From IMG/VR virus record IMGVR_UViG_3300031867_000022, positions 36,633 to 100,632 of that record: a DNA stretch of 64,000 nt. One strand, given 5' to 3'. The position numbers and the translations under genes are program-made. The notes beneath the pieces were generated by a model. That model was not told where the DNA came from, did no database searches, and was given only the letters and a program-made list of their open reading frames with translations. Shown here in pieces: positions 3,193-38,056 of this stretch. This stretch comes from a virus. Lineage: Duplodnaviria; Caudoviricetes. Positions within the stretch are counted from its first letter, which is position 1. Each line of letters opens with the position of its first letter.

Positions 3193-3267
3193 TGGTCGCC
3201 CCACCATCGAGTCGAACCCGGACCTGGAGGGTTAGAGCCTCCCGTGCTACCGCTACACCATGGAGCA
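3193..3267 (-). tRNA. Amber suppressor tRNA (anticodon CUA), Gln-like body
   Basis: TGCTCCA-TG-GTGT-AGCGGTA-GCAC-G-GGAGG-CTCTAAC-CCTCC-AGGT-CCGGG-TTCGACT-CGATGG-TGGGGCG-A-CCA. U1 start, encoded CCA, anticodon at 3235-3233, irregular T-stem. Confidence 0.9.
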
Positions 3268-5353: not shown

Positions 5354-5381
5354 TGCAACTTTTGTGCTGTTTTTCACGTTA
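5354..5381 (+). promoter_or_regulatory. ECF-sigma-type promoter (rightward)
   Basis: TGCAAC-N16-ACGTTA, back-to-back with the leftward copy. Confidence 0.7.
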
Positions 5382-5394
5382 TGTGACTGTACTT

Positions 5395-5430
5395 GGGGGA
5401 AGAAGGGGGACTATAGGGGGTTATTAGGGG
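5395..5430 (+). other. G-run tract (G-quadruplex-capable)
   Basis: GGGGG-AAGAA-GGGGG-ACTATA-GGGGG-TTATTA-GGGG in an AT-rich background. Confidence 0.5.
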
Positions 5431-5531
5431 CCTAGATAATGTTCTAACTATATTATAAATATAATATATACTGGCCCTTTCTCTTTGGTACTTTCTCTTT
5501 CCCCAGTAAATATTAACGTAATATTAGCTAA

Positions 5532-5948
5532 ATGAAGAATAAAAAGAAAGCTAGAATAGATACATACAGCACTATCTACGACATGGATGTAGTAGTAGCT
5601 AACGAATTAGTTACTTTAAAGAAACTTAGAGAGCTGTTTGAATATACAGATGGTAAAGAATTAGAAGATCTCTATACTGAATGGGATGTTGTCACAGCTC
5701 TTCTAAAACGCAAATCTGATGGAGCTTATACTGTACTTGTAAAATTCAATAAGATTTCTGACAGTTTTGTTTCAAGCGGAGACAAGCTGTTAGATATGAT
5801 TGATATATGCTCTCATGAAGCTACTCATGTGGCATTGGATATATACAATAATGTATCAGCTAAAGTAGATACAGAAAACCAAGAGAATTTTGCCTACTTT
5901 GTAGCATATATTGCAGAAAGAATAGCTAAAACACTATTAAACAAATGA
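5532..5948 (+). CDS. Zincin-like (HExxH) putative metallopeptidase
   Basis: CSHEATHVALD followed by ENFAY (third-ligand-like Glu). Confidence 0.6.
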   Translation: MKNKKKARIDTYSTIYDMDVVVANELVTLKKLRELFEYTDGKELEDLYTEWDVVTALLKRKSDGAYTVLVKFNKISDSFVSSGDKLLDMIDICSHEATHVALDIYNNVSAKVDTENQENFAYFVAYIAERIAKTLLNK

Positions 5949-12003: not shown

Positions 12004-12064
12004 AATACTGTCGGGATGTAGATGTCCCCTGATGAGTCGTTGCAAATTACGACGAAACAGTATT
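12004..12064 (+). ncRNA. Type III hammerhead ribozyme
   Basis: Stem III AATACTG/CAGTATT, GUC triplet (cleavage after 12012), stem I GGGAT/GTCCC, core CTGATGA, stem II GTCGT/ACGAC, core GAAA. Confidence 0.9.
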
Positions 12065-12088: not shown

Positions 12089-12442
12089 ATGGCAAAAAAG
12101 ATTATCGTAGACGAAATTAAGAGAGCCTCAGCTGCTCTCAAAGATTTCCACATTGCTCATGTAATTGTCTCTTATAAAGACAAACATAGCATTGTTGTGT
12201 TGAATAAGCTATTTGAAGATGCCAAAACGGCAATTCAGACGGCTGACGTCAAGATTCTTAGTGTTCGTGGTGCTCGTCACTATGAGACACTTGCTCTCAA
12301 TCACAGTATGTGGGAACCAATGTACGAACACAAATGTAAACATTGTGGTAAAACGTTCAGGTCTCCAATTAAGGAACAAGTCTGGTGCTCTCATGCATGT
12401 AAGTGGGCTTATCGTAAACAACAAAAAACCAAAGCAGCATGA
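12089..12442 (+). CDS. Protein with C-terminal zinc finger, ends -AA
   Basis: CKHCGKTF...WCSHAC; TTTATCAAAAATGGC start context. Confidence 0.8.
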   Translation: MAKKIIVDEIKRASAALKDFHIAHVIVSYKDKHSIVVLNKLFEDAKTAIQTADVKILSVRGARHYETLALNHSMWEPMYEHKCKHCGKTFRSPIKEQVWCSHACKWAYRKQQKTKAA

Positions 12443-12554
12443 AACTAACAGAAAACGAGAAAAATGCAATAACATGCGTACTGATTATGGTAGTATGCGC
12501 AGCCGTTGTCTTTTGCGCTGCAATTGTTTCTAGTTGTAACTCTTATTAATTTTT

Positions 12555-15598: not shown

Positions 15599-15758
15599 TT
15601 ATGCACGGCTGTCAGAAAACCAAACCTGTTACGTACAGGGAGCGTCATAAGGCTGCCACGCCTTATATTCGCAAAACAAAACACAGAGAAGACCTCCGTA
15701 AGGAGTATTCATAGTGAGTTACAAACATTTAGTTATTAATTTTTAACATTTATCAAAA

Positions 15759-16421
15759 ATGGCAAAAGAAAAAGAACAAAAGCAGAAAGCTGTTACACTT
15801 ACAGCGAACAACGTAGTCGAAGAAGCTAAAAAAGGTAACATTCTGACCACCGAGTTGAAAGAGCGCATGGACAAGGAGATCCAAGACGAGAAGGACAAAC
15901 AGATCGTCTATGAGGTCAAGCGCCGTCACAGTAAGATAGGTTATATCTTAGGCATGTCTTTGGTTCACAAACGCAAGATGAACCGATACAACGATCTTTC
16001 GACGTACAACGTTCGTCAGCTTGGCCGCCTTGAGCGATTCTTGTGTGGATTTACGGTAACTGACCAGATCATCAACGAATTCGCTCGTACAGAGGATGAC
16101 GTTCTCGGATTGGAAGTTCTTGACGAGAAGAAGAACGTTCTCAAGATCAAGATTGTGAAAGAGGACGGCAAGACTCGCGAAGAGAAGGAATTCAAGGTAG
16201 GCGACGTGGTGCCCGCTGTCATCGACTTTTCTGAGTTTGACAAAGGTACAGCCAAGCTGGAGGAGAACCTCAAGAAGAAGCGTCAGGAGATCGAAGATCT
16301 GCATAAAGATGACGCAAAAGTCATTGCGCAGGCAGCTGGAGAGTACTACAGTACAGACTGGACATACAACTTACGTATCGTAACCATGGATGGTCTCGAT
16401 CGTTCTCATCCAGTGTATTAA
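15759..16421 (+). CDS. Hypothetical charged protein (220 aa)
   Basis: TTTATCAAAAATGGC context; biased codons. Confidence 0.85.
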   Translation: MAKEKEQKQKAVTLTANNVVEEAKKGNILTTELKERMDKEIQDEKDKQIVYEVKRRHSKIGYILGMSLVHKRKMNRYNDLSTYNVRQLGRLERFLCGFTVTDQIINEFARTEDDVLGLEVLDEKKNVLKIKIVKEDGKTREEKEFKVGDVVPAVIDFSEFDKGTAKLEENLKKKRQEIEDLHKDDAKVIAQAAGEYYSTDWTYNLRIVTMDGLDRSHPVY

Positions 16422-16469
16422 GCAACTGTGACTAGTGATAGTCAAGTCAGCACATCATCCATAAAGCGA

Positions 16470-16810
16470 GAACCTAGAGTCAGTGCTTTATAAAACCCAA
16501 AATGTAGATTACAGATCAATAGTCCGTCTTTACACTATCGGTACACGTTTACAGATTAATTAAATGGACGGTAGAGCACGACACTACATTTAATATAAGC
16601 AGAATTAACTGCAAGCAGTTAGAGTCTTGAGCCAACACTGTTAGGGTGATTAACACCGACCACACGGTGTAATAATATGTGGCCATTTGATCAAATAACT
16701 GCAATGTACGAGCCATTGAGTCGGTGCCACTGAGTGAGATGATATCAAAACTTAGACACTGCATTGTATATCAAGAAATGCGGGTACAACCTATTCAGAA
16801 CCTTAGAGTC
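16470..16810 (+). repeat. Cluster of four GARYC-N2/3-GARYC motifs in non-coding DNA
   Basis: GAACC-TA-GAGTC 16470; GAGTC-TT-GAGCC 16622; GAGCC-ATT-GAGTC 16710; GAACC-TTA-GAGTC 16798. Confidence 0.65.
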
Positions 16811-16998
16811 AGCAATAGATCACTGTACCAAACTAAGGCCTTAAAAAGCCTCTCTAAGCGTTTCAAATCCTTGAGTGGATTAGCTACCCATGATAGGGGG
16901 AGAAAATGCCTTAGAGAGGCTATAATACGGCTTAAATCGAATTCTGTGACTGATCATCACAGAGTTTACTAGAGTGTACAACATTAAAATCAATTTAT

Positions 16999-17175
16999 AT
17001 GAAGTACGAAAATTCTATGCATCGATTCTTTCAAGTTAGTAGCGGAGTTTCCCTTATTATAGCAGGTATAAGTATGCTAAAAGGCAATATGCAAGGTGCA
17101 ACATTTGGTGTGCTTTTGGCCATACACTTAAACATGCTATCTTGGAATTATGAAGATTACGATGAGGAAGAATAA
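16999..17175 (+). CDS. Small membrane protein (58 aa)
   Basis: MKYENSMHRFFQVSSGVSLIIAGISML...YDEEE-TAA. Confidence 0.5.
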   Translation: MKYENSMHRFFQVSSGVSLIIAGISMLKGNMQGATFGVLLAIHLNMLSWNYEDYDEEE

Positions 17176-17177
17176 GA

Positions 17178-17390
17178 AATCTTAGCGTGTCCCAGGATAA
17201 GTCGTTCGGACGGCGGTTCGATTCCGCCCAGGTCCACCTATATTAATAAATATGGGCTTGACTGGTTTAGACGGCGACAGAAAGTAAGACATCAAGCGCT
17301 TTGATATAAAAATTAAACGGCAACATAAACGTTGTTGACTACACGGGTCTCCAGGAGGCAGCGTGAAGTCGGTGAACCCTACCTAAGTGG
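17178..17390 (+). ncRNA. ssrA: Circularly permuted (two-piece) tmRNA; outer ends approximate
   Basis: The 3' acceptor part comes first (GGAC-GGCGG-TTCGATT-CCGCC-CAGGTCC-A-CC, 17208-17238), then an AT spacer, then the 5' part GGGCTTG-ACTGGTTTAGAC at 17254. Pairing gives G3-U70; P2 is GGCGAC/GTCGTT; tag ORF 17319-17366 reads GNINVVDYTGLQEAA-TGA. Confidence 0.88.
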
Positions 17391-17393
17391 GGA

Positions 17394-17450
17394 GAGTGAG
17401 TAGCGTTAATTCGCCCAGGTACAGGTGGGTTCGAATCCCACACTCACTCC
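17394..17450 (+). ncRNA. Anticodon-less tRNA-like element
   Basis: GAGTGAGT/ACTCACTC stem stacked on GTGGG-TTCGAAT-CCCAC T-arm; small GCG/CGC arm. Confidence 0.6.
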
Positions 17451-17539
17451 TACGTCGTGAGACGCATTAGACTGTCTTAAAGGATAGTCTCTTTCGTGAA
17501 TGGTAGGTGCAGGTGAAGTATAGTAGCCTGCACCGTAAT

Positions 17540-18653: not shown

Positions 18654-18780
18654 TATCAGGGCTGTCCCTCAGAGGTAGTCTTTGATGACAACAGCCCACA
18701 ACACAGCACCGTCTGTTATGTGAGTGACACACTAATAACCGGAACATAGTGCTAACGCACTATAGTTAATTTGTTTGATT

Positions 18781-19344
18781 ATGTCCAAGAATCCTAGAAT
18801 CACTTCAGAAGAAGTTGGGATAATCAAAAGAGCGCAAGCAGGTGATGAATCTGCTTTTAATATACTTTTTCACAAATACAAAGGATTTGTTGAGAATATA
18901 CTGTTTCAGTATATCAAGGATATGGATGAAGCCAAAGATATGGCTAATTTCGTCTTCTTAAAAGTATATAATAATCTCTCAAAGTTTACAAAGTACGACT
19001 CCTTCGGGGGTTGGCTAAGAATACTGACTAATCGAGTGGCAATCGACTATTTGCGTACAATGGAGAACAAACAAGTAGCACTTGGTGATGATGTAGGCCG
19101 ACTACCTACAAATGAAACAAGTAGCTCGTATGAAGACGAAATTGTCAATCGTCTAACATATAAGCAATTGCTAAGTGAGTTCAACAAGCTTTCAGAAGAT
19201 GCTCGTAAAATCTTCGAGCTGTACTATGAGAATCGAATGACAGTTGAAGAAATCAGTAAAGCGCTTCGAATCCCAACAGGAACTATTAAGTCAACGTTGT
19301 CAAGAACGCGTAAAAAGATTCAAAAACGTTTAAAAATTAATTAA
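18781..19344 (+). CDS. ECF-family sigma-70 factor
   Basis: Region 2 (AGDESAFNILFHKY...DEAKDMANFVFLKVY...FGGWLRILTNR..ID) and region 4 (MTVEEISKALRIPTGTIKSTLSRTRKKI). Confidence 0.92.
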   Translation: MSKNPRITSEEVGIIKRAQAGDESAFNILFHKYKGFVENILFQYIKDMDEAKDMANFVFLKVYNNLSKFTKYDSFGGWLRILTNRVAIDYLRTMENKQVALGDDVGRLPTNETSSSYEDEIVNRLTYKQLLSEFNKLSEDARKIFELYYENRMTVEEISKALRIPTGTIKSTLSRTRKKIQKRLKIN

Positions 19345-19729: not shown

Positions 19730-19796
19730 CTGGCTTAAACAACCAATCGAGAATGTAAAAAAGTAGTTATTAACAATTTAAACCCGTTTATCAAAA

Positions 19797-21182
19797 ATGG
19801 CAAAAACAAAGCAAAACGCAGCACAGGCTGCAATGGAAAACAATGGCAACGCTCCTGAGACAAAAGAGGAGGCAAAAGTACTCACTCAGGTAATGGACGC
19901 TGCAAAGAGCAACCACCTGTCACAGGACAGTAAGGTTATGCTCGCTTACCTTACTCAGAAGCGCTGGGTAGAAAATCCAAATCTCCCCACGACACTGGTT
20001 GAAGGTGCAAATGTTATTACAGACGCCCTCATGGCCGATACTATCGTTACAAGCATCGCTAAAGGCGATGAAGCATTTACAATGCTTATTCGTAACGACG
20101 AAAGCAAGTATATCGCTATCGCAGCGGCTCTGAATACCTTTGGTATTACCATGCCGGCATTCAAAGAGCTCCCCGCTCCTTCAGAAGACCAGCTGAAGAA
20201 GATTGGCGTTAAGCTTCTTCCTGCAGAAACCAAGGTTGTAACTGTAAACAAACAGAACATCGACAAGGCCGCCATCGAACAGAAGAAGAAAGAAGTAGCA
20301 GTGGTGAAGAAGAATCCCACGACCGATCCCACAAAGATCGAAAATGAGACTCAGCTTAAGGAAGCCCTTCAGTCTTTACTGATGAATATGAAGGAGACTC
20401 CTGACGGTCGTATTCAAAATGCTGTAGCTTTCTACCAGGCATATCTTGAGCTCCAGGCACAGAAGTCTGAAAACAAGGATGAAGAGATTAAGCGTATCAA
20501 GGATCTTTCCCGCCCTGTATTGCTGAAACAAATCTCTGAACTTCTTGGCAACTGTACCTATGCTCTCGATGGTATGGGCAAGCTGTTCGCAAAAGCTGCC
20601 ATAGAGTCTAATTCTCCAGTGGTCCCATTCAAGATGTACAAGACTGCATCAAAGAACACATCTGACGAGATTGCTGCAGAGATGGTTAAAACTCTGGTTG
20701 TGTGGACTTGTGAGTCTCGCATAAAGAACTGTCAAGACTACATAGACATGGCCGCTAAGGACAAGTCTAAGAAGGATGATGAGAAGCGTAAAGCTAACAT
20801 CCGTACAGCAGAGGATTCTATAGCAGAAGCGCAGAATGCTATCAGCATCGTTACCAATCCTTCGTTCGATAACGTTGACAATCTGATTGAGAACTACAAA
20901 TCTGCAGACGTACAAAGTGATGCGTATCGTATCGCACACCGCATCGTCAGCAACATGAAGGATTTGTTCTACAAGAAGCTTGACATCGCCAAGGTTGGTA
21001 TGGATGCATTCTTGCATAACTGTCAACAGCATGCAGGTATTATCACCAACCTTTTCTGCAGTACATTCAATCAGTCTATGGGTTACAGCACCGCTAACCT
21101 CATAGAACTGAAGGAAACTGAAGCTGCCGAAGGTGAAGGTGAGAAGACCGAAGAAAAGCAGGAAGGTGAGTCAAAAAACTGA
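19797..21182 (+). CDS. Hypothetical protein (461 aa, helical)
   Basis: Long ORF, TTTATCAAAAATGGC context. Confidence 0.9.
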   Translation: MAKTKQNAAQAAMENNGNAPETKEEAKVLTQVMDAAKSNHLSQDSKVMLAYLTQKRWVENPNLPTTLVEGANVITDALMADTIVTSIAKGDEAFTMLIRNDESKYIAIAAALNTFGITMPAFKELPAPSEDQLKKIGVKLLPAETKVVTVNKQNIDKAAIEQKKKEVAVVKKNPTTDPTKIENETQLKEALQSLLMNMKETPDGRIQNAVAFYQAYLELQAQKSENKDEEIKRIKDLSRPVLLKQISELLGNCTYALDGMGKLFAKAAIESNSPVVPFKMYKTASKNTSDEIAAEMVKTLVVWTCESRIKNCQDYIDMAAKDKSKKDDEKRKANIRTAEDSIAEAQNAISIVTNPSFDNVDNLIENYKSADVQSDAYRIAHRIVSNMKDLFYKKLDIAKVGMDAFLHNCQQHAGIITNLFCSTFNQSMGYSTANLIELKETEAAEGEGEKTEEKQEGESKN

Positions 21183-21719: not shown

Positions 21720-23880
21720 TACTCCGGTGCGGGGGATAGACCAGGTCTGTCCCCCAGCCAGTTTGGCAGCACGTCAGCACGGTATAGATGGGTCTCATTA
21801 GCCCAGGTGGTGCGAAATATAATTTACTGGATCCGAGAATATGTTAGCCCTCTCAAAGGGTGAGAAACTCAAAAGGTAGGATGGAAGATCGCAAGTGTGA
21901 AAAGCTTGTGGATATTAGGGTAAGCGTTGTATCAACCCTATTCTGGTCCCTGAGAACCGTCTGGTGAGGGTAGTCAAGAGAAGACGCATAAGTCGCAAAA
22001 AGCGCAAAACGAACCGTATCGAAAGATTTAGATTTCGAGTGATACATAGATCTGAAATCACGTTACACGAGTTGAAACATTATAGTAAGCCAAAAACTAT
22101 AATGATGTATCAATTTACTTTAAGCTGTAGTCTAGTGTTCCACGCAATCCAGGGCGTGTATGAAGGGACGAACAATTACATGGAATAATATAAGCAATAT
22201 CATAAGGGTAATACTTATGAGGCGTACCGTAACTACGTCGCTTTTTCGAACCCTTGCTGTTCGATTCAGCACAGCTCCGTTGAAGGGGTAAGCCAGGGAT
22301 GAGGTATAGCTGATTGTGTTAGGAAATGTGACCGCCAGGCCTTAGTCGTTCATGCGGTATATAAAAGTAGAATGACATACTAGTCCGATGCAGGGATTAA
22401 ATGCGAAGTAGGGCCTAGAGGCTTGAAGGCTACGCGGATGAAGTGCGCGGTGAAACACTATTTCAAAAAGGGAAAGCTCGGTAAGCGGAGTATGTAAAAG
22501 AACCTAGCGTTAAGATGTACCGGAGGAAATGCCGGAGTCGAAGGATGACAACCTGACAGTCAAAACCAATTGTTTTAAAGTAGGTCGATTCAAAGCCTAT
22601 ACATTCCAGTATAGAGGAAGATCGCTTTCTTGTGCAGATAAAAGATAATATGAGATGTTACTGTTGTACTATATCAGCGAGAGTAGTAAACTCGTGTGCG
22701 GTATGACTTAACTATGGTCACTCATATGAAAATATATTGAAACGAAACAATTAGAGAGTATTAACATGTTTAACAAAATTGATGTTCCCAGCTGGTAGAA
22801 GAAATAAAGACAACTTTGTATGTATGCGCTATCACGTCTGGAGTTCGAGTGCCAACCGTTCCTGAGAAGCAAGTAGCAAGATGGGAAACTAAGCGAAGCA
22901 TAGACCGCAAATCTATGTGGGTGGATACCATGAAGCAATATACATGACAAATGAAGAAATTCAGATGCAAGGCAGCCTATCGTGAAACGAAGTATCACCT
23001 CCTTGTCTGGGAGGGGTAAAGCGACCAGGATGAACCTTATGTTTTATACATAAGTAGTAAAAATGGAAACCGAAGAAGCGAATCTTTAGGTGGGTGATAA
23101 ATCTAGATGTATGAGGTGGAATTCCTCCAGTATTCGTGCACTATAAACAATGAGGAAGTAAATCCAAGAGTAAAAACAACCGTACGTCCATGATGGGTTA
23201 TGGAGCCCTAGACAGTTCGACAACAAAAGCGTTCCTCTTCACGCAAATACCAATTAGTTATAAAGAACGAAGCCGGGTATTGATTGTTCTGACCGGAAAA
23301 AAGCATAGAACAGTGGCAGCTGTGCCTAATCAGTATCGCAAGACTGTACAACAGCAGAGTAGTTCAATCAGCTTATAGGGAAAATACGCTGAAGAATTAC
23401 GCAACTCTCATTTACGACCACAAACTGGGTTTAGTAAAACGTTCTACGAACATTAGTTGCGAAAGCAAAATTTTGCCAACGAACAAATGAAAACGCTCAG
23501 TTCATGAAAATTGAATATTAACATAGTTCCAAGTAATTTTATGTCTAATCACATAGTATCCAAGTTTGTACTTTTACTGAAGATAAAAGAATCCTCTAAT
23601 GACGGGCATGGATGATTCTACCGTTGAATCCCCGACAGATGAAACAGTGTTCGTGCTGTGTAATCTGTCTAGCTAGAGAAAACTTTATTAACAGCAAAAA
23701 CATTGCTCTCATGAGCACGCATAAAGATACAGAATAAGAAATTACCGAACACACGTTCATAGAGCCTTTGAGCCAGAACGCCACATTTCGAAACTCAAAG
23801 GTTACCCTCCCGCCAGAAGTGGAGGACATATTAATTCTTATCGTTAGTTAATCAATAACGATATCAAAAAGGATAAGAAA
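21720..23880 (+). ncRNA. Candidate very large structured non-coding RNA (~2.15 kb)
   Basis: No credible ORF (all under 100 aa) in a gene-dense genome; many hairpins, GNRA-type loops, a T-loop arm and long-range complementarities. Confidence 0.65.
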
Positions 23881-25984: not shown

Positions 25985-26128
25985 CAAAGAAATAGCGCAT
26001 AAAACTGCCGTTTAAGCCGTTTATTTCCCTTTGACGATTAACTATACCACCCCTAGCGCTAGAGTGGCTCAGATCGCCTTAAAATGGCTTTAAACGCAAT
26101 AGTTTTAACCCTCTAAACTGTTATCAAA

Positions 26129-26515
26129 ATGGCTAAAGAGAAAACATTACGACAGGAAGACCTGCCAAAGCTCCGTAAGACTGTATTTTATGACGGAGAG
26201 AAAGAGAGAAAAGAAAATCGTGCTGCTAACAAGCATCGTAAATATAGAGTAAAGCGTATATGGAATGCCGAAACTCAGAAGTATGAGAAGGTAAAGGTGT
26301 ATAAGCAAAGTACTACATTTACCAGAAAGGAGATGAAGGAACGCTTTAACACAAAGCACGTTGACATAGTGGTAATAAAGAAAACACCACCAGCACCAGT
26401 AGTCCATGCCAAGACTATAAACATAAAGCCTGTAACTCACCATTACATAGGAATTGAGTACAGACAGCGTCTTGACTGGGATTCTAAAACGCTTACTTAC
26501 AAAGCAGCAGCATAG
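26129..26515 (+). CDS. Highly basic protein ending -AAA
   Basis: 128-aa K/R-rich ORF. Confidence 0.8.
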   Translation: MAKEKTLRQEDLPKLRKTVFYDGEKERKENRAANKHRKYRVKRIWNAETQKYEKVKVYKQSTTFTRKEMKERFNTKHVDIVVIKKTPPAPVVHAKTINIKPVTHHYIGIEYRQRLDWDSKTLTYKAAA

Positions 26516-26539
26516 TATTAACTTAAAAACATTATCAAA

Positions 26540-27340
26540 ATGAGTAAGAAGAATTTTAAGGTGGCAACGACCGAAGACGGTAAGACCCCAAAGCAAAATA
26601 CATCAAAAACAGATCATATCTTTGCAACAGCAAAGATTACAAAGAATAAAACTCCAACCGGTAAGGTTAAGAAGATAGAAGATACTAAGAAGCGTCGCGA
26701 AGCACGTGAAGAACAGTATCGTCAGTTCCGTATCAAGGCACTTATTCGTCGAGGACAACGTATGAAGCTTCCAGAGCAAGAGATAGAAGACTTGAAGAAG
26801 CTTCTGATCAAGCAGATGGATGAACCGAAGCAGTATACTATACTATGTCTATTCCCGACTAAGTCTCCGACAAAGAAAGGCGAGGCATCTATAGCCAATC
26901 TTGCTAAGCAGGCTATCCTGAATAGTAAGATAGAATACAAGCTACTCACCGATACGTACGCCTACATTATTGGCGATGAGAAGGTTCTCGCTAAACTGCG
27001 TGAGATTCTTCCAGAAGGCGTAACTATTCACCCGCATGCAAAGAAGCAAGCTTCTGTATTCAACATAGTAGACAAGCCGAAGCAGGAAAAGAAGCCTTCT
27101 AATAACAATAAGAATGTAGCTGCCAAAGCTAAGGCTGCTCGTAAGGCTGCCAAGTTGGCATACTACATCGATCGTCCTAACCACAAACGAGCAGGTAAAA
27201 AGGCACGCCGTGTAGAAAAGAATATAAAGCTTTCTGAGCGTCGAAATGCCCGCAAGGCTAAGATTGTCCAGGCTGTAAATAAAAAGCCGTCAGAGAGCCT
27301 TAAAAAGGCCTCTAAGAGCAATATGAAACAAGCAGCATAG
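26540..27340 (+). CDS. Highly basic protein ending -QAA
   Basis: 266-aa K/R-rich ORF. Confidence 0.85.
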   Translation: MSKKNFKVATTEDGKTPKQNTSKTDHIFATAKITKNKTPTGKVKKIEDTKKRREAREEQYRQFRIKALIRRGQRMKLPEQEIEDLKKLLIKQMDEPKQYTILCLFPTKSPTKKGEASIANLAKQAILNSKIEYKLLTDTYAYIIGDEKVLAKLREILPEGVTIHPHAKKQASVFNIVDKPKQEKKPSNNNKNVAAKAKAARKAAKLAYYIDRPNHKRAGKKARRVEKNIKLSERRNARKAKIVQAVNKKPSESLKKASKSNMKQAA

Positions 27341-28061: not shown

Positions 28062-28086
28062 CTATTAATCTAAGAACCACAGAGTC

Positions 28087-29952: not shown

Positions 29953-29982
29953 TAACCAACTTCGAACCAAAGAGTCAATAGT

Positions 29983-31974: not shown

Positions 31975-31991
31975 TAAAATAAATAGAACCT

Positions 31992-32738
31992 ATGAGTCTA
32001 ACATTACCTACATCTAAAATTCCAGCAGTTTCTACAAACCCAAGATATATGGTTTTATATGGGCTTCCAAAAGCAGGCAAGACATCTTGCGTTGCTCAGC
32101 TTGATAACAACCTAATCATAGACCTCGAAGGCGGGTCTCAGTTTATTGATGCTATGTCCATACAGGCACGTAACATTAATGAATTAGGAGAAATTGCTCA
32201 AGCCATTAGAGCTAAGAATACTGAAGTAGGGCATAATTTCTATAAACGAATCACAATAGATAATGCAACACGTCTTGAAGACATTTGTATGTCTTATGCT
32301 TGCACTCTCTATCGAAAGACGGAGCTTGGCAGGAACTGGAAAGGAGACGACGTTACTACACTTGCACATGGTGCAGGTTACAAGTATCTGAGAGACGCCG
32401 TTAAAAAGGTAATTGATATGTTCAAGGACCTTTGTGATGAGTTCATTCTTATTGGCCATGTCAAAGATAGTATCACCGATAAAGACGGCCAAGAGGTCAA
32501 CGCAAAAGAAATTGACCTCATTGGTAAGCTTGGAAGAATCATCTGTGGACTTGCAGACGCAGTCGGTTACGTATATCGAAAAGATAACGAGACTCACATC
32601 TCTTTTAAATCAGAAGGGGATGGAACGACTATGGAAGCCCGCGCGAGACATCTTGCAGGCAAGGATATTATCATTGCAAAGGGAAATGAGGACGGCACTC
32701 TGACCACTTATTGGGATAGAGTTTATTTGCCCGAATAA
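31992..32738 (+). CDS. P-loop ATPase (AAA_24/Sak4-like recombination protein)
   Basis: YGLPKAGKT, IDLEGG, IDN, LIGH, D.VGY. Confidence 0.85.
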   Translation: MSLTLPTSKIPAVSTNPRYMVLYGLPKAGKTSCVAQLDNNLIIDLEGGSQFIDAMSIQARNINELGEIAQAIRAKNTEVGHNFYKRITIDNATRLEDICMSYACTLYRKTELGRNWKGDDVTTLAHGAGYKYLRDAVKKVIDMFKDLCDEFILIGHVKDSITDKDGQEVNAKEIDLIGKLGRIICGLADAVGYVYRKDNETHISFKSEGDGTTMEARARHLAGKDIIIAKGNEDGTLTTYWDRVYLPE

Positions 32739-32775
32739 TTCAGAATCTACGAATCAGTAATTAAAGGAAGAAATT

Positions 32776-33912: not shown

Positions 33913-33935
33913 CAATACAAAAGAGCCCATGAGCC

Positions 33936-35027: not shown

Positions 35028-35417
35028 GTGAAGACTAAAGGTAGGGTTAAGAATGCGACAGCAGTCGATGCGTATGGACTACATTTCCGTAGTAAACTCG
35101 AACTCTATACGTATGAAGCTTTTATGAAAGCTGGAATACCAGTTAAATATGAGCCAAAGCATTTTACCTTACTTCCAAAGTTTGAGTACCTTGGAGAGAA
35201 AATACGACCTATCACATACCTCCCTGACTTCATAGGGAGAGGTTTTGTGGTAGAGTGTAAAGGTCTTATGGGAGACTCGTTTCCCTTAAGATTTAAACTC
35301 TTCAAGTATTATCTCAAGAAGCATCGATCTAAGTATAAGTGCTATTTAGTACGAAATCACAAACAGGTTGATGAGATGATTGAGGACATTATTAAGAACC
35401 AAAAGAGTCAAAAGTAA
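35028..35417 (+). CDS. PD-(D/E)XK endonuclease (resolvase-like; T7 endo I/DUF1064 type)
   Basis: FRSKLE, YEP..F.L, YLPDF, VECKG. Confidence 0.8.
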   Translation: MKTKGRVKNATAVDAYGLHFRSKLELYTYEAFMKAGIPVKYEPKHFTLLPKFEYLGEKIRPITYLPDFIGRGFVVECKGLMGDSFPLRFKLFKYYLKKHRSKYKCYLVRNHKQVDEMIEDIIKNQKSQK

Positions 35418-37050: not shown

Positions 37051-38056
37051 TACTCCTTACTACGAAGATCACGAACGCGTGAGTAATTCGTCTATAGGAT
37101 GGTTCTTAAAAGGAGGGCCATCCTATTTTTATAAGATGTGGAAAGGTGAGATTGCTGGAGAAGAAACTCCACAATTAAAAAGAGGAACCATGATACATTC
37201 TTATATACTAACGCCTGAAGAGTTCCAGAAAACATATGTAGTATGGGACAAAAGTAGACCTACTTCTGCACAACAGGAGAAGTTCTGTCAGGAGTTAGCT
37301 AACACAGTAGAAATAGAGCCAAATAGAGCCATTCTAAGCGCCTATAAAGAGGCGTATAGTACAGCAGGAAAGTCAGAAGATAAAATGCTGTCAGAAGGCC
37401 TTAAAATAGCCTCTACGTTGAAGGATTACATAGACTTCCTGAAAGAGAATGATGGAAGGATTATGATTAGTCCTTGGGATGCCCAAATGCTTGAGAAAAT
37501 CAAGACAAACATATATGATCATAAACTTGCACCGCATATAGTATGGCCACATAAGTATATGGCAGACTATAAAAATGGATCTGCAACTATTGCAGACTCA
37601 GATGTTGCGTATCATGAATTTCATATAAATTGGGGTTATGAGAACAAGATACAGTGTAAATCATTGCTGGATGGCCTTACTCTTGACTTTAAGAATAAGA
37701 AAGCTATTATATACGACTTAAAGACTACACAAAAGTTGTGGCACTTTGAGGATAGTATGAATCAGTATGATTACCTAAGACAGTTAGCGTATTACACAAT
37801 GGCTGTACGATGGTATCTTGTTAACGAATGCGGAGAAGATCCATATGCTTGGAGTTTTGAGTACTATATTATTGGTATAGATACTACCAGTAGTAATGAG
37901 ATTCGTGTCTTTAAAATTGAACACGAACAAGTGCAATCTAGATACGATACTATACTCGATGCTCTGGATGCTATAGCTTGGCATCAACGTGAGAATAAGT
38001 GGGATCACAGTAGAGAATATTATGAAGGCAACGGCTCGGAGTCATTGAACCTATGA
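37040..38056 (+). CDS. PD-(D/E)XK exonuclease (DUF3799/RecE-like)
   Basis: VSNSSI, GTMIH, CKSLLD, YDLKTT, Y.RQLAYY. Confidence 0.85.
   Translation: MNIDTPYYEDHERVSNSSIGWFLKGGPSYFYKMWKGEIAGEETPQLKRGTMIHSYILTPEEFQKTYVVWDKSRPTSAQQEKFCQELANTVEIEPNRAILSAYKEAYSTAGKSEDKMLSEGLKIASTLKDYIDFLKENDGRIMISPWDAQMLEKIKTNIYDHKLAPHIVWPHKYMADYKNGSATIADSDVAYHEFHINWGYENKIQCKSLLDGLTLDFKNKKAIIYDLKTTQKLWHFEDSMNQYDYLRQLAYYTMAVRWYLVNECGEDPYAWSFEYYIIGIDTTSSNEIRVFKIEHEQVQSRYDTILDALDAIAWHQRENKWDHSREYYEGNGSESLNL

Follow-up and report, generated by a model that had tools for sequence, protein, structure and literature searches.

Why does a crAss-like phage keep some 570 nt that encode no apparent protein and carry four copies of a motif that recurs at the starts of its replication genes? 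The question is raised by positions 16422-16998 of a 64-kb window (the whole stretch of DNA analysed, to which all coordinates refer), the right-hand part of the virus record IMGVR_UViG_3300031867_000022. The record is a complete virus of 100,632 bp with direct terminal repeats. Its closest named relatives are crAss-like phages of the Crassvirales, Suoliviridae, Oafivirinae (Buhlduvirus cr273_1 and cr272_1; Bohxovirus). crAss-like phages are among the most abundant human gut viruses. To our knowledge, almost nothing is known about their post-transcriptional gene control, and their Bacteroidota hosts have no Shine-Dalgarno pairing, no CsrA and no Hfq. An earlier note, made from the letters of the window alone, had offered two proposals for the region: a CsrB-like sponge RNA that titrates a repressor of replication-gene translation, or iterons of a replication origin. 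We observed that the region has the hallmarks of a conserved structured RNA, that its four motifs are hairpins also found at the starts of replisome genes and of a sigma factor gene, and that these hairpins change together between lineages. We tentatively favour a decoy RNA.

We found no credible open reading frame (ORF) in 16422-16998 using genetic code 11, code 11 with TAG read as glutamine, or code 4, in agreement with the earlier note. Relatives do not preserve the window's own open frame (82-98 codons): in the 63 homologous elements, the longest run of codons free of stops, taken over all six frames, had a median of 60 codons and a minimum of 33, and no frame was conserved. The motif GARYC-N2-3-GARYC occurs on the + strand at 16470, 16622, 16710 and 16798 (spacing 152, 88 and 88 nt). 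These four sense copies, also reported before, compare with 0.015 expected from dinucleotide shuffles, and 0 of 3000 shuffles reached four. In the whole window we counted 16 motifs on the + strand and 0 on the − strand (~2.0 and 1.5 expected). The whole 100.6-kb genome has 16 forward copies and 1 reverse copy, with every forward copy inside the window, and the forward/reverse ratios in 9 relatives resemble those of this genome. The motif is specific to the sense strands of the early/replication arm. Two + strand matches inside minus-strand genes (60876 and 62025) violate the pairing rule described below, as chance matches should.

Only the strict G1...C5 form of the motif was diagnostic in this genome. 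A looser RARYY version (56 on + vs 25 on −) was discarded as too permissive in A-rich coding sequence. One further + strand copy with a 5-nt spacer, GAGCC-AAAUA-GAGCC, lies at 37316-37330 within an exonuclease gene and is identical in G002, G004, G005, G008 and cr273_1; it may reflect conservation of the coding sequence or be an internal site. The GATCA words mentioned earlier were confirmed at 16514, 16689, 16818 and 16952, the second and fourth of them within conserved blocks (UGAUCAAA and the loop CUGAUCA).

The motif is present as described before, but it is not a simple direct repeat. Judged by covariation, the GARYC "pair" is a mini stem-loop, 5'-G A [R Y] C N2-4 G A [R' Y'] C-3', in which R pairs with Y' and Y pairs with R'. 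Among 57 distinct site variants, the central dinucleotides were GC/GC (26), AC/GU (15), GU/AC (7), AU/AU (5), GC/GU (2) and GU/GC (2), with 0 incompatible combinations. When 56 distinct 17-mers were compared, including the window's messenger RNA (mRNA) sites, 112 of 112 cells paired vs 79.7% after shuffling (0/500 shuffles equal). Each of the four sites shows all three pairing classes, so many double switches must have occurred. Conserved A.C and C.A juxtapositions border the two Watson-Crick pairs, a conserved G and A lie on the 5' side, and C, the spacer and GA form the apical loop. The intermediates are G.U and never A.C, which fits a sense-strand RNA. A separate pairing-partner RNA (GARYC being the set that pairs with GGUUC, wobble allowed) was considered and rejected: no tandem complement was found on the sense strand, and pairing within the motif explains the covariation.

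To retrieve homologues, an invariant 16-mer, the loop of the hairpin at 16875, was scanned as anchor against public viral and metagenome contigs. The scan returned about 60 true homologues (63 distinct sequences) in Oafivirinae crAss-like phages. Nearly all carry four motif pairs, at approximately −360, −253, −171 and −75 nt from the anchor. The 5' third of the element varies between lineages, unlike the conserved 3' two thirds. No annotation covers the region in the cr273_1, cr272_1 and Bohxovirus records. Rfam 15 gave no gathering-threshold match in 16422-16998, and its E-value mode gave chance-level matches only (suhB, 16 bits; SNORD66, 14.7 bits). With the upstream gene product as query we recovered no loci among viral contigs, and with the sigma factor only four. 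Against genome contigs, nearly all 49 matches to the 16-mer were chance matches. The exception (L229), on a contig binned with a Bacteroidaceae metagenome-assembled genome, has an element-like cluster that includes the variant GUGCC-UCA-GUGCC; this is a weak hint of Bacteroidaceae as the host family.

We assessed the fold by single-sequence folding and by alignment. Folding scored z=−4.5 on the + strand and z=−2.5 on the − strand relative to shuffles. In module 2 (alignment A3), 80.6% of cells were paired vs 63.6% in shuffled and 26-43% in slid alignments, and 18 of 21 pairs were compensatory. These include the pseudoknot, where helices 4 and 5 had 91% and 88% of cells paired and 5/6 and 4/5 pairs changed on both sides. 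The 3' domain (alignment A4) reached 87.9% vs 78.7% shuffled and 33-51% slid, with compensatory change in 21 of 37 pairs. G.U and U.G cells exceeded A.C and C.A cells (112 vs 35), which identifies the + strand as the folding strand. Comparison of the homologues established ~16455-16970 as a conserved structured region, with a pairing pattern that fits an RNA fold predicted for that strand.

Sites 1, 2 and 4 place the motif in 14-20-nt loops on stems of 3-9 bp (2 bp once), and the stem sequence is lineage-specific while complementarity is kept. At site 3, an automatic stem search chose shorter local stems; by eye, alignment A2 has enclosing stems in other lineages as well (ACAGUA/UACUGU in L004, CUGUAUG/CAUACAG in L006). 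The apical loop GAUUAG and the terminal loop CUGAUC were compatible in 97% of cells and hardly varied, and a kissing contact between them is possible. A periodic GC/AT element that the earlier note had placed next to the motifs is probably the long three-tier hairpin at 16834-16934, if that is the element its author meant. The sequence GAATTAAC was ruled out as a promoter, being the loop of a covarying hairpin.

The same mini stem-loop recurs on the mRNA start regions of replisome genes, of the sigma factor gene and of three genes (29983, 32776 and 38053) with unconfirmed functions (Table 1). The AUG lies in or abuts the 3' strand of the lower stem at the primase, ATPase and gene 38053 sites, and weakly so at the polymerase site. 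Sites on the RNA and on the mRNAs have the loop motif and mini stem-loop in common; their lower stems differ. The motif-to-AUG distance ranges from −7 to +20 nt, always within the ribosome footprint and not fixed, which suits steric control of initiation more than it does a positioning element or cleavage. The site persists at orthologous starts in four relatives, and the variants GAGCU-UAU-AAGCC and GAACU-AU-AAGUC obey the pairing rule and lengthen the helix. The cluster and the start-codon sites co-occur in Buhlduvirus and Bohxovirus. The cluster comprises four sites in Chuhaivirus cr130_1 and three detected ones in Dulem virus 42, and both phages have further rule-obeying pairs on the same strand.

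We then compared the motif between lineages and observed a concerted change. The four RNA sites all have the form GUAUC-N2-3-GUAUC in Burzaovirus cr7_1 and cr124_1 and in the metagenomic genome G001. Several mRNA sites read likewise: the polymerase start in G001 has GUAUC-UUU-GUAUC, the sigma start in cr7_1 and cr124_1 has GUAUC-AGC-GUAUC at the orthologous position, and these two genomes also have a GUAUC pair where gene order places the Sak4 start. The hairpin 5' of the gene 23884 orthologue is of the GUAUC type in both Burzaovirus genomes, and G001 carries a GUAUC pair at the matching place 5' of its positional orthologue. The start of the gene 29983 orthologue is GUAUC-like in G001 and cr7_1. 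Motif position 2 is unpaired and has nevertheless changed everywhere together, as expected if one lineage-specific factor reads all the hairpins. This joint switch is the strongest argument for the RNA and mRNA sites being one system.

A second lineage (L032, L082, L113 and L181; genome G006) changed differently. It kept the scaffold and the tmRNA (transfer-messenger RNA), and one of its four RNA sites is GARYC. The loops of sites 2 and 4 are ACAYGUAUAUG and AAAAACGUGUGAG, and its start-codon hairpins have drifted to AARYY, including perfect palindromes such as AACUUAUAAGUU. The earlier note had named loss of the cluster from relatives that keep the start-codon motifs as the pattern that would speak against its idea. 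We did not clearly observe this pattern; most relatives keep both, and the L032 lineage is a partial exception.

Table 1. Coordinates of the RNA element, of the mini stem-loop sites on mRNA start regions and of associated genes in the window.
Feature	Position	Strand	Description
Whole structured non-coding RNA, ~520 nt	16455-16970 (approximate ends)	+	63 distinct homologues
Site 1 hairpin	16461-16491	+	Stem AUAAAGCG/UGCUUUAU; loop with GAACC-UA-GAGUC (16470-16481); stem differs per lineage, always pairs
Hairpin GCAG-AAUUAA-CUGC	16599-16612	+	AAUUAA loop conserved; A3 helix 1, 5/6 pairs change both sides
Site 2 hairpin	16614-16642	+	Stem AGCAGU/ACUGUU; loop with GAGUC-UU-GAGCC (16622-16633)
H-type pseudoknot	16653-16683	+	Hairpin ACACCG/CGGUGU; loop CCACA pairs with UGUGG (16679-16683) past a UAAUAU linker
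Single-stranded block UGAUCAAA	16688-16695	+	Nearly invariant columns in A2 and A3
Site 3 domain	16701-16767	+	Stem GCAAUG/CAUUGU around GAGCC-AUU-GAGUC (16710-16722), plus variable hairpin
Conserved block AUAUCAAGAA	16768-16777	+	From alignment
Site 4 hairpin	16783-16829	+	Stems GGUACA/UGUACC and CUAUU/AAUAG; loop with GAACC-UUA-GAGUC (16798-16810)
Long three-tier hairpin	16834-16934	+	A4; apical mini-hairpin GUGG-AUUAGCUAC-CCAU (16875-16891) invariant in most lineages
Terminal hairpin	16940-16966	+	Conserved loop CUGAUCA; A4 helix 5, 93% of cells paired, 8/10 pairs change both sides
Lineage-specific insert, ~200 nt, 58-codon ORF	16999-17175	+	Between RNA and tmRNA; absent in most relatives
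Two-piece (circularly permuted) tmRNA	17187-17366 (ARAGORN 17144-17457)	+	Rfam RF04321, 71.1 bits, full-length
ECF-type (extracytoplasmic function) sigma factor gene	18775-19344, ATG 18781	+	Downstream of RNA cluster
Sigma factor gene site GAAUC-CUA-GAAUC	18789-18801	+	Begins 8 nt past ATG 18781
Operator-like hairpin CGUUC[..GAGCC-UUU-GAGCC..]GAACG	23762-23774	+	~110 nt 5' of gene 23884; stem covaries in G002, G004, G005
DNA polymerase site	28074-28086	+	Adjoins ATG 28087
Gene 29983 (187 aa) site	29964-29976	+	6 nt 5' of ATG
Sak4-like gene site	31986-31998	+	Spans ATG 31992
Gene 32776 (211 aa) site	32743-32755	+	20 nt 5' of ATG
Primase site	33923-33935	+	Adjoins ATG 33936; closing stem AUACA/UGUAU takes in UG of AUG
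Clamp-loader-like ATPase site	35396-35409	+	7 nt 5' of ATG 35417; stem CAUUAUU/AGUAAUG holds AUG, covaries in G005
Gene 38053 site	38039-38051	+	1 nt 5' of ATG; stem GCUCG/UGAGC takes in UG of AUG
Replication module	DNA polymerase 28087; DnaB-like helicase 30527; Sak4-like 31992; primase 33936; clamp-loader-like ATPase 35417		

Our preferred reading, which we hold tentatively, is that the element is an operator-mimic decoy RNA that titrates a factor acting on the replisome and sigma mRNAs. A sequence-specific factor, probably a phage protein acting as a dimer or with two domains, would bind the mini stem-loops on the mRNAs. Once bound, it would govern ribosome access, most simply as a repressor. 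The non-coding RNA would present four equivalent sites and so titrate the factor, and titration would set the timing or level of replisome and sigma synthesis, as CsrB/RsmZ do through CsrA. The RNA may be transcribed within the tmRNA/transfer RNA (tRNA) transcript and freed by the processing that matures the tmRNA. Of the two proposals made earlier, the sponge RNA is the better fit to the anatomy, to a conserved sense-strand RNA, to the shared hairpins and to the joint switch, although the element does not belong to the CsrB family.

Several observations weigh against a decoy. The conserved structure, with its pseudoknot and invariant loops, goes far beyond what a plain sponge needs. In the L032 lineage the scaffold persists with a single GARYC site, and the scaffold must therefore be valuable without the sites. 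The element always adjoins the tmRNA, which hints at another or an additional role. No CsrA (PF02599) was found in the complete phage genome, in a search that gave matches in control genomes and did not extend to the host genome. Pfam and PHROG scans of 25 neighbouring gene products recognised no RNA-binding domain, and the predicted fold of the gene 23884 product had no informative match in the PDB (Foldseek best E 0.35; VIA-align best Z 4.8, helix-dominated). We also infer, rather than observe, the transcription of the element and the sign of the control (repression or activation).

Candidate binders that carry their own site are the products of genes 23884, 29983, 32776 and 38053. The gene 23884 product gave a weak KH-like Pfam match (E=0.03). 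Its predicted fold is an alpha/beta domain plus a long 50-residue helix (pLDDT, predicted local distance difference test, 78.6), and it shares 23% identity with its G001 counterpart. A look-alike search of the Atlas returned nothing for this product and a weak DUF669 lead, similar to single-stranded-DNA-binding protein (SSB), for the gene 32776 product, which as a lead makes an SSB possible. The gene 29983 product has 598 unnamed homologues and a sub-threshold Pfam match to the winged-helix protein ScpB (15.6 bits vs a cut-off of 27.4); being encoded immediately ahead of the helicase, it may be a helicase loader or organiser. The RegA profile (PF01818) had no match in the phage, and the control search with it was likewise silent in every genome.

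The constant neighbour of the element is the tmRNA. The element lies between gene 15759-16421 and a cluster of RNA genes (tRNA/tmRNA), with the next ATG at 16999. The tmRNA has the permuted acceptor stem and tag frame of RF04321, and the element is wholly upstream of the start of the model. The distance from the anchor to the tmRNA T-loop is 131-141 nt in at least 12 lineages, and 5-15 nt separate the terminal hairpin from the start of the Rfam tmRNA model. The element thus sits where permutation of a tmRNA gene would put the PK2-PK4 pseudoknot ring, and the short phage tmRNA itself cannot accommodate PK2-PK4. Similar to that ring, the element sits directly 5' of the acceptor piece and combines a pseudoknot with tandem hairpins. 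It differs from the ring in being far larger (~520 nt) and in falling outside the Rfam tmRNA models. In L024 (~12270-12480), an unrelated ~200-nt insert with a small ORF, which opens with a tandem 24-nt duplication, occupies the same junction as the insert in the window. These two inserts show that continuity between RNA and tmRNA is not essential.

A functional link to the tmRNA could account for this arrangement. The element could be a functional 5' domain of the two-piece tmRNA or its obligate partner, with hairpins that bind the ribosome or a trans-translation factor and with mRNA modules that couple starts to it. We consider this unlikely, although it is served by the fixed spacing, the short tmRNA, the fold of the element and the scaffold that the L032 lineage retains after losing most GARYC sites. 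The junction inserts speak against it. So do the motif-to-AUG distances, which are unlike those of a ribosome-positioning element, and the joint switch from GARYC to GUAUC, which suggests a fast-evolving partner and not ribosomal RNA (rRNA) or a conserved ribosomal protein. A specific form of the idea, in which the four-hairpin RNA is the missing pseudoknot-ring domain and the mini stem-loop docks on the ribosome or on a ribosome-bound phage factor, seems to us quite doubtful. If it were true, a physical connection would join the phage tmRNA to the start regions of its replisome and sigma genes. We know of no tmRNA that has a motif in common with mRNAs, and of no system in which ribosome rescue is linked to programmed translational control. 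A more modest reading is that the RNA borrows the tmRNA/tRNA processing machinery for its own maturation.

Other features were observed at the tmRNA locus. Directly 3' of the tmRNA coding piece, a tRNA-like mini-structure with a 7-bp acceptor-like stem and a T arm (17394-17449, +; weak tRNA-Sec match, 21 bits) may be a processing handle. In genome G001, a group I intron (L006 7024-7270, −; RF00028, 65.9 bits) follows right after a truncated T-loop-like sequence, GGGUUCGAAUC, which sits where relatives carry the tmRNA T-loop; the intron therefore probably splits the tmRNA gene. L006 contains another group I intron at 5366-5568.

Processing offers a different explanation of the hairpins. The mini stem-loops could be sites for a hairpin-specific endoribonuclease. 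Its cuts would yield monocistronic mRNAs from the replication operon and, from the non-coding precursor, four or five small RNAs plus the tmRNA. Nearly every replication-module junction does have such a hairpin, with conserved nucleotides in its internal loop, and others recur at ~90-nt intervals in a region that needs processing for the tmRNA and tRNAs anyway. The RNase III hairpins of T7 are similar in being recurrent intergenic hairpins with conserved internal loops in a polycistronic early/replication operon. They differ in having longer stems and another motif, and the AUG does not lie within them as it does here. As the AUG is inside the hairpin or a few nt away, and its offset varies, the cut mRNAs would have leaders that differ in length and range from absent to very short. 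The stems (3-9 bp plus 4) are poor substrates for RNase III, and domain scans of the neighbouring gene products recognised no nuclease candidate. We regard cleavage as rather improbable.

The RNA might instead be the primary target of a replisome protein, as a ribonucleoprotein (RNP) scaffold or as a priming or origin RNA that recruits it, and the mRNA sites would then be feedback mimics. Ribosomal proteins behave in this way, binding rRNA and also their own mRNAs. The anatomy expected is the same as for a decoy, the regulon consists of replisome genes, and the rich, conserved, tertiary-looking structure suits an RNP more than a passive sponge. However, we observed no evidence of priming or of an origin. 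The GC skew, proposed earlier as a check for an origin, rose smoothly in the cumulative profile between 15 and 19 kb and turned only at ~5 kb and 38.5 kb, where gene orientation flips (+ strand genes span 5.0-38.5 kb of the window), so that the skew merely tracks gene orientation. These data do not separate this explanation from a decoy, and we consider it distinctly improbable.

The least credible explanation, and a highly improbable one, is the origin proposed earlier, in which the four motifs are double-stranded DNA iterons whose initiator also represses replication-gene promoters: four repeats do lie beside the replication arm and the gene 29983 product has its one sub-threshold winged-helix match, but the sites are 88-152 nt apart and out of helical phase, each lies within covarying inverted repeats with numerous G.U pairs, the two halves of every site pair with each other through G.U and never A.C intermediates, the mRNA sites follow start codons and not promoters, and the skew profile has no inflection.

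Returning to the decoy RNA, we compared it with known systems. Similar to CsrB/RsmZ with CsrA/RsmA, a non-coding RNA carries several copies of a motif in hairpin loops, the motif overlaps the start regions of target mRNAs, and the logic would be titration; the likeness is a functional analogy and not homology. Unlike CsrB/RsmZ, the loops carry GARYC-N2-4-GARYC and not GGA (ANGGA), the phage has no CsrA, the RNA is phage-encoded, it has a pseudoknot and invariant loops that are absent from Csr sponges, and binding is proposed. The T4 RegA regulon is similar in that one phage factor acts on many early-gene starts, notably those of the replisome. RegA operators are AU-rich and unstructured, whereas the sites here are hairpins with covarying stems, and we know of no decoy RNA in T4. 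Like the MS2/PP7 coat-protein operators and the T4 gp43 operator, each site is a small hairpin with conserved unpaired bases that contains or abuts a start codon. Those operators are locked by a bound protein dimer, which is putative here. They also stand singly on one gene, whereas this phage has at least 8 sites plus the 4 decoy sites, with other loop and internal-loop sequences.

The closest precedent comes from the crAss-like phage phi14:2, which has abundant long non-coding RNAs of unknown function in its g004-g006 intergenic regions (bioRxiv 10.1101/2020.03.07.982082). The two are likened by description only: both are long early-arm non-coding RNAs of a crAss-like phage, and those of phi14:2, a distant marine relative, are highly expressed. 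A full-text literature search turned up no account of the RNA or its motif in crAss-like phages. Our results define a family of structured RNAs that is new and widespread in Oafivirinae, a hairpin motif, also new, whose covariation is unusually clean, and a putative regulon made up of the phage sigma factor gene and replisome genes. Were the decoy model correct, this would be, as far as we could find, the first phage-encoded protein-sponge RNA over a replication regulon. The GARYC and GUAUC lineages offer a natural specificity swap for finding the binder, and the tight link to the tmRNA raises the question of the purpose of phage tmRNAs.

We also noted features elsewhere in the window. Between 21720 and 23880 lie 2.1 kb without a long ORF (code 11, TAG=Q, code 4) and without an Rfam match, ending at the conserved hairpin at 23762; the stretch may be a further large non-coding RNA. 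At 3193-3267 (−) there is an amber-suppressor tRNA (anticodon CUA; labelled tRNA-Pyl by ARAGORN), which suggests that TAG is recoded in part of the genome. A match to the type III hammerhead ribozyme was found at 12005-12063 (+), with 49.8 bits vs the Rfam gathering score of 48.5. A recurrent leader, (A)GTATTAAC...N...TTATCAAAA-ATGGC, lies at 15729-15761, 19767-19799, 26099-26131 and 26510-26542, 5' of several probably highly expressed genes, and forms a class of start regions distinct from those that bear the hairpin.

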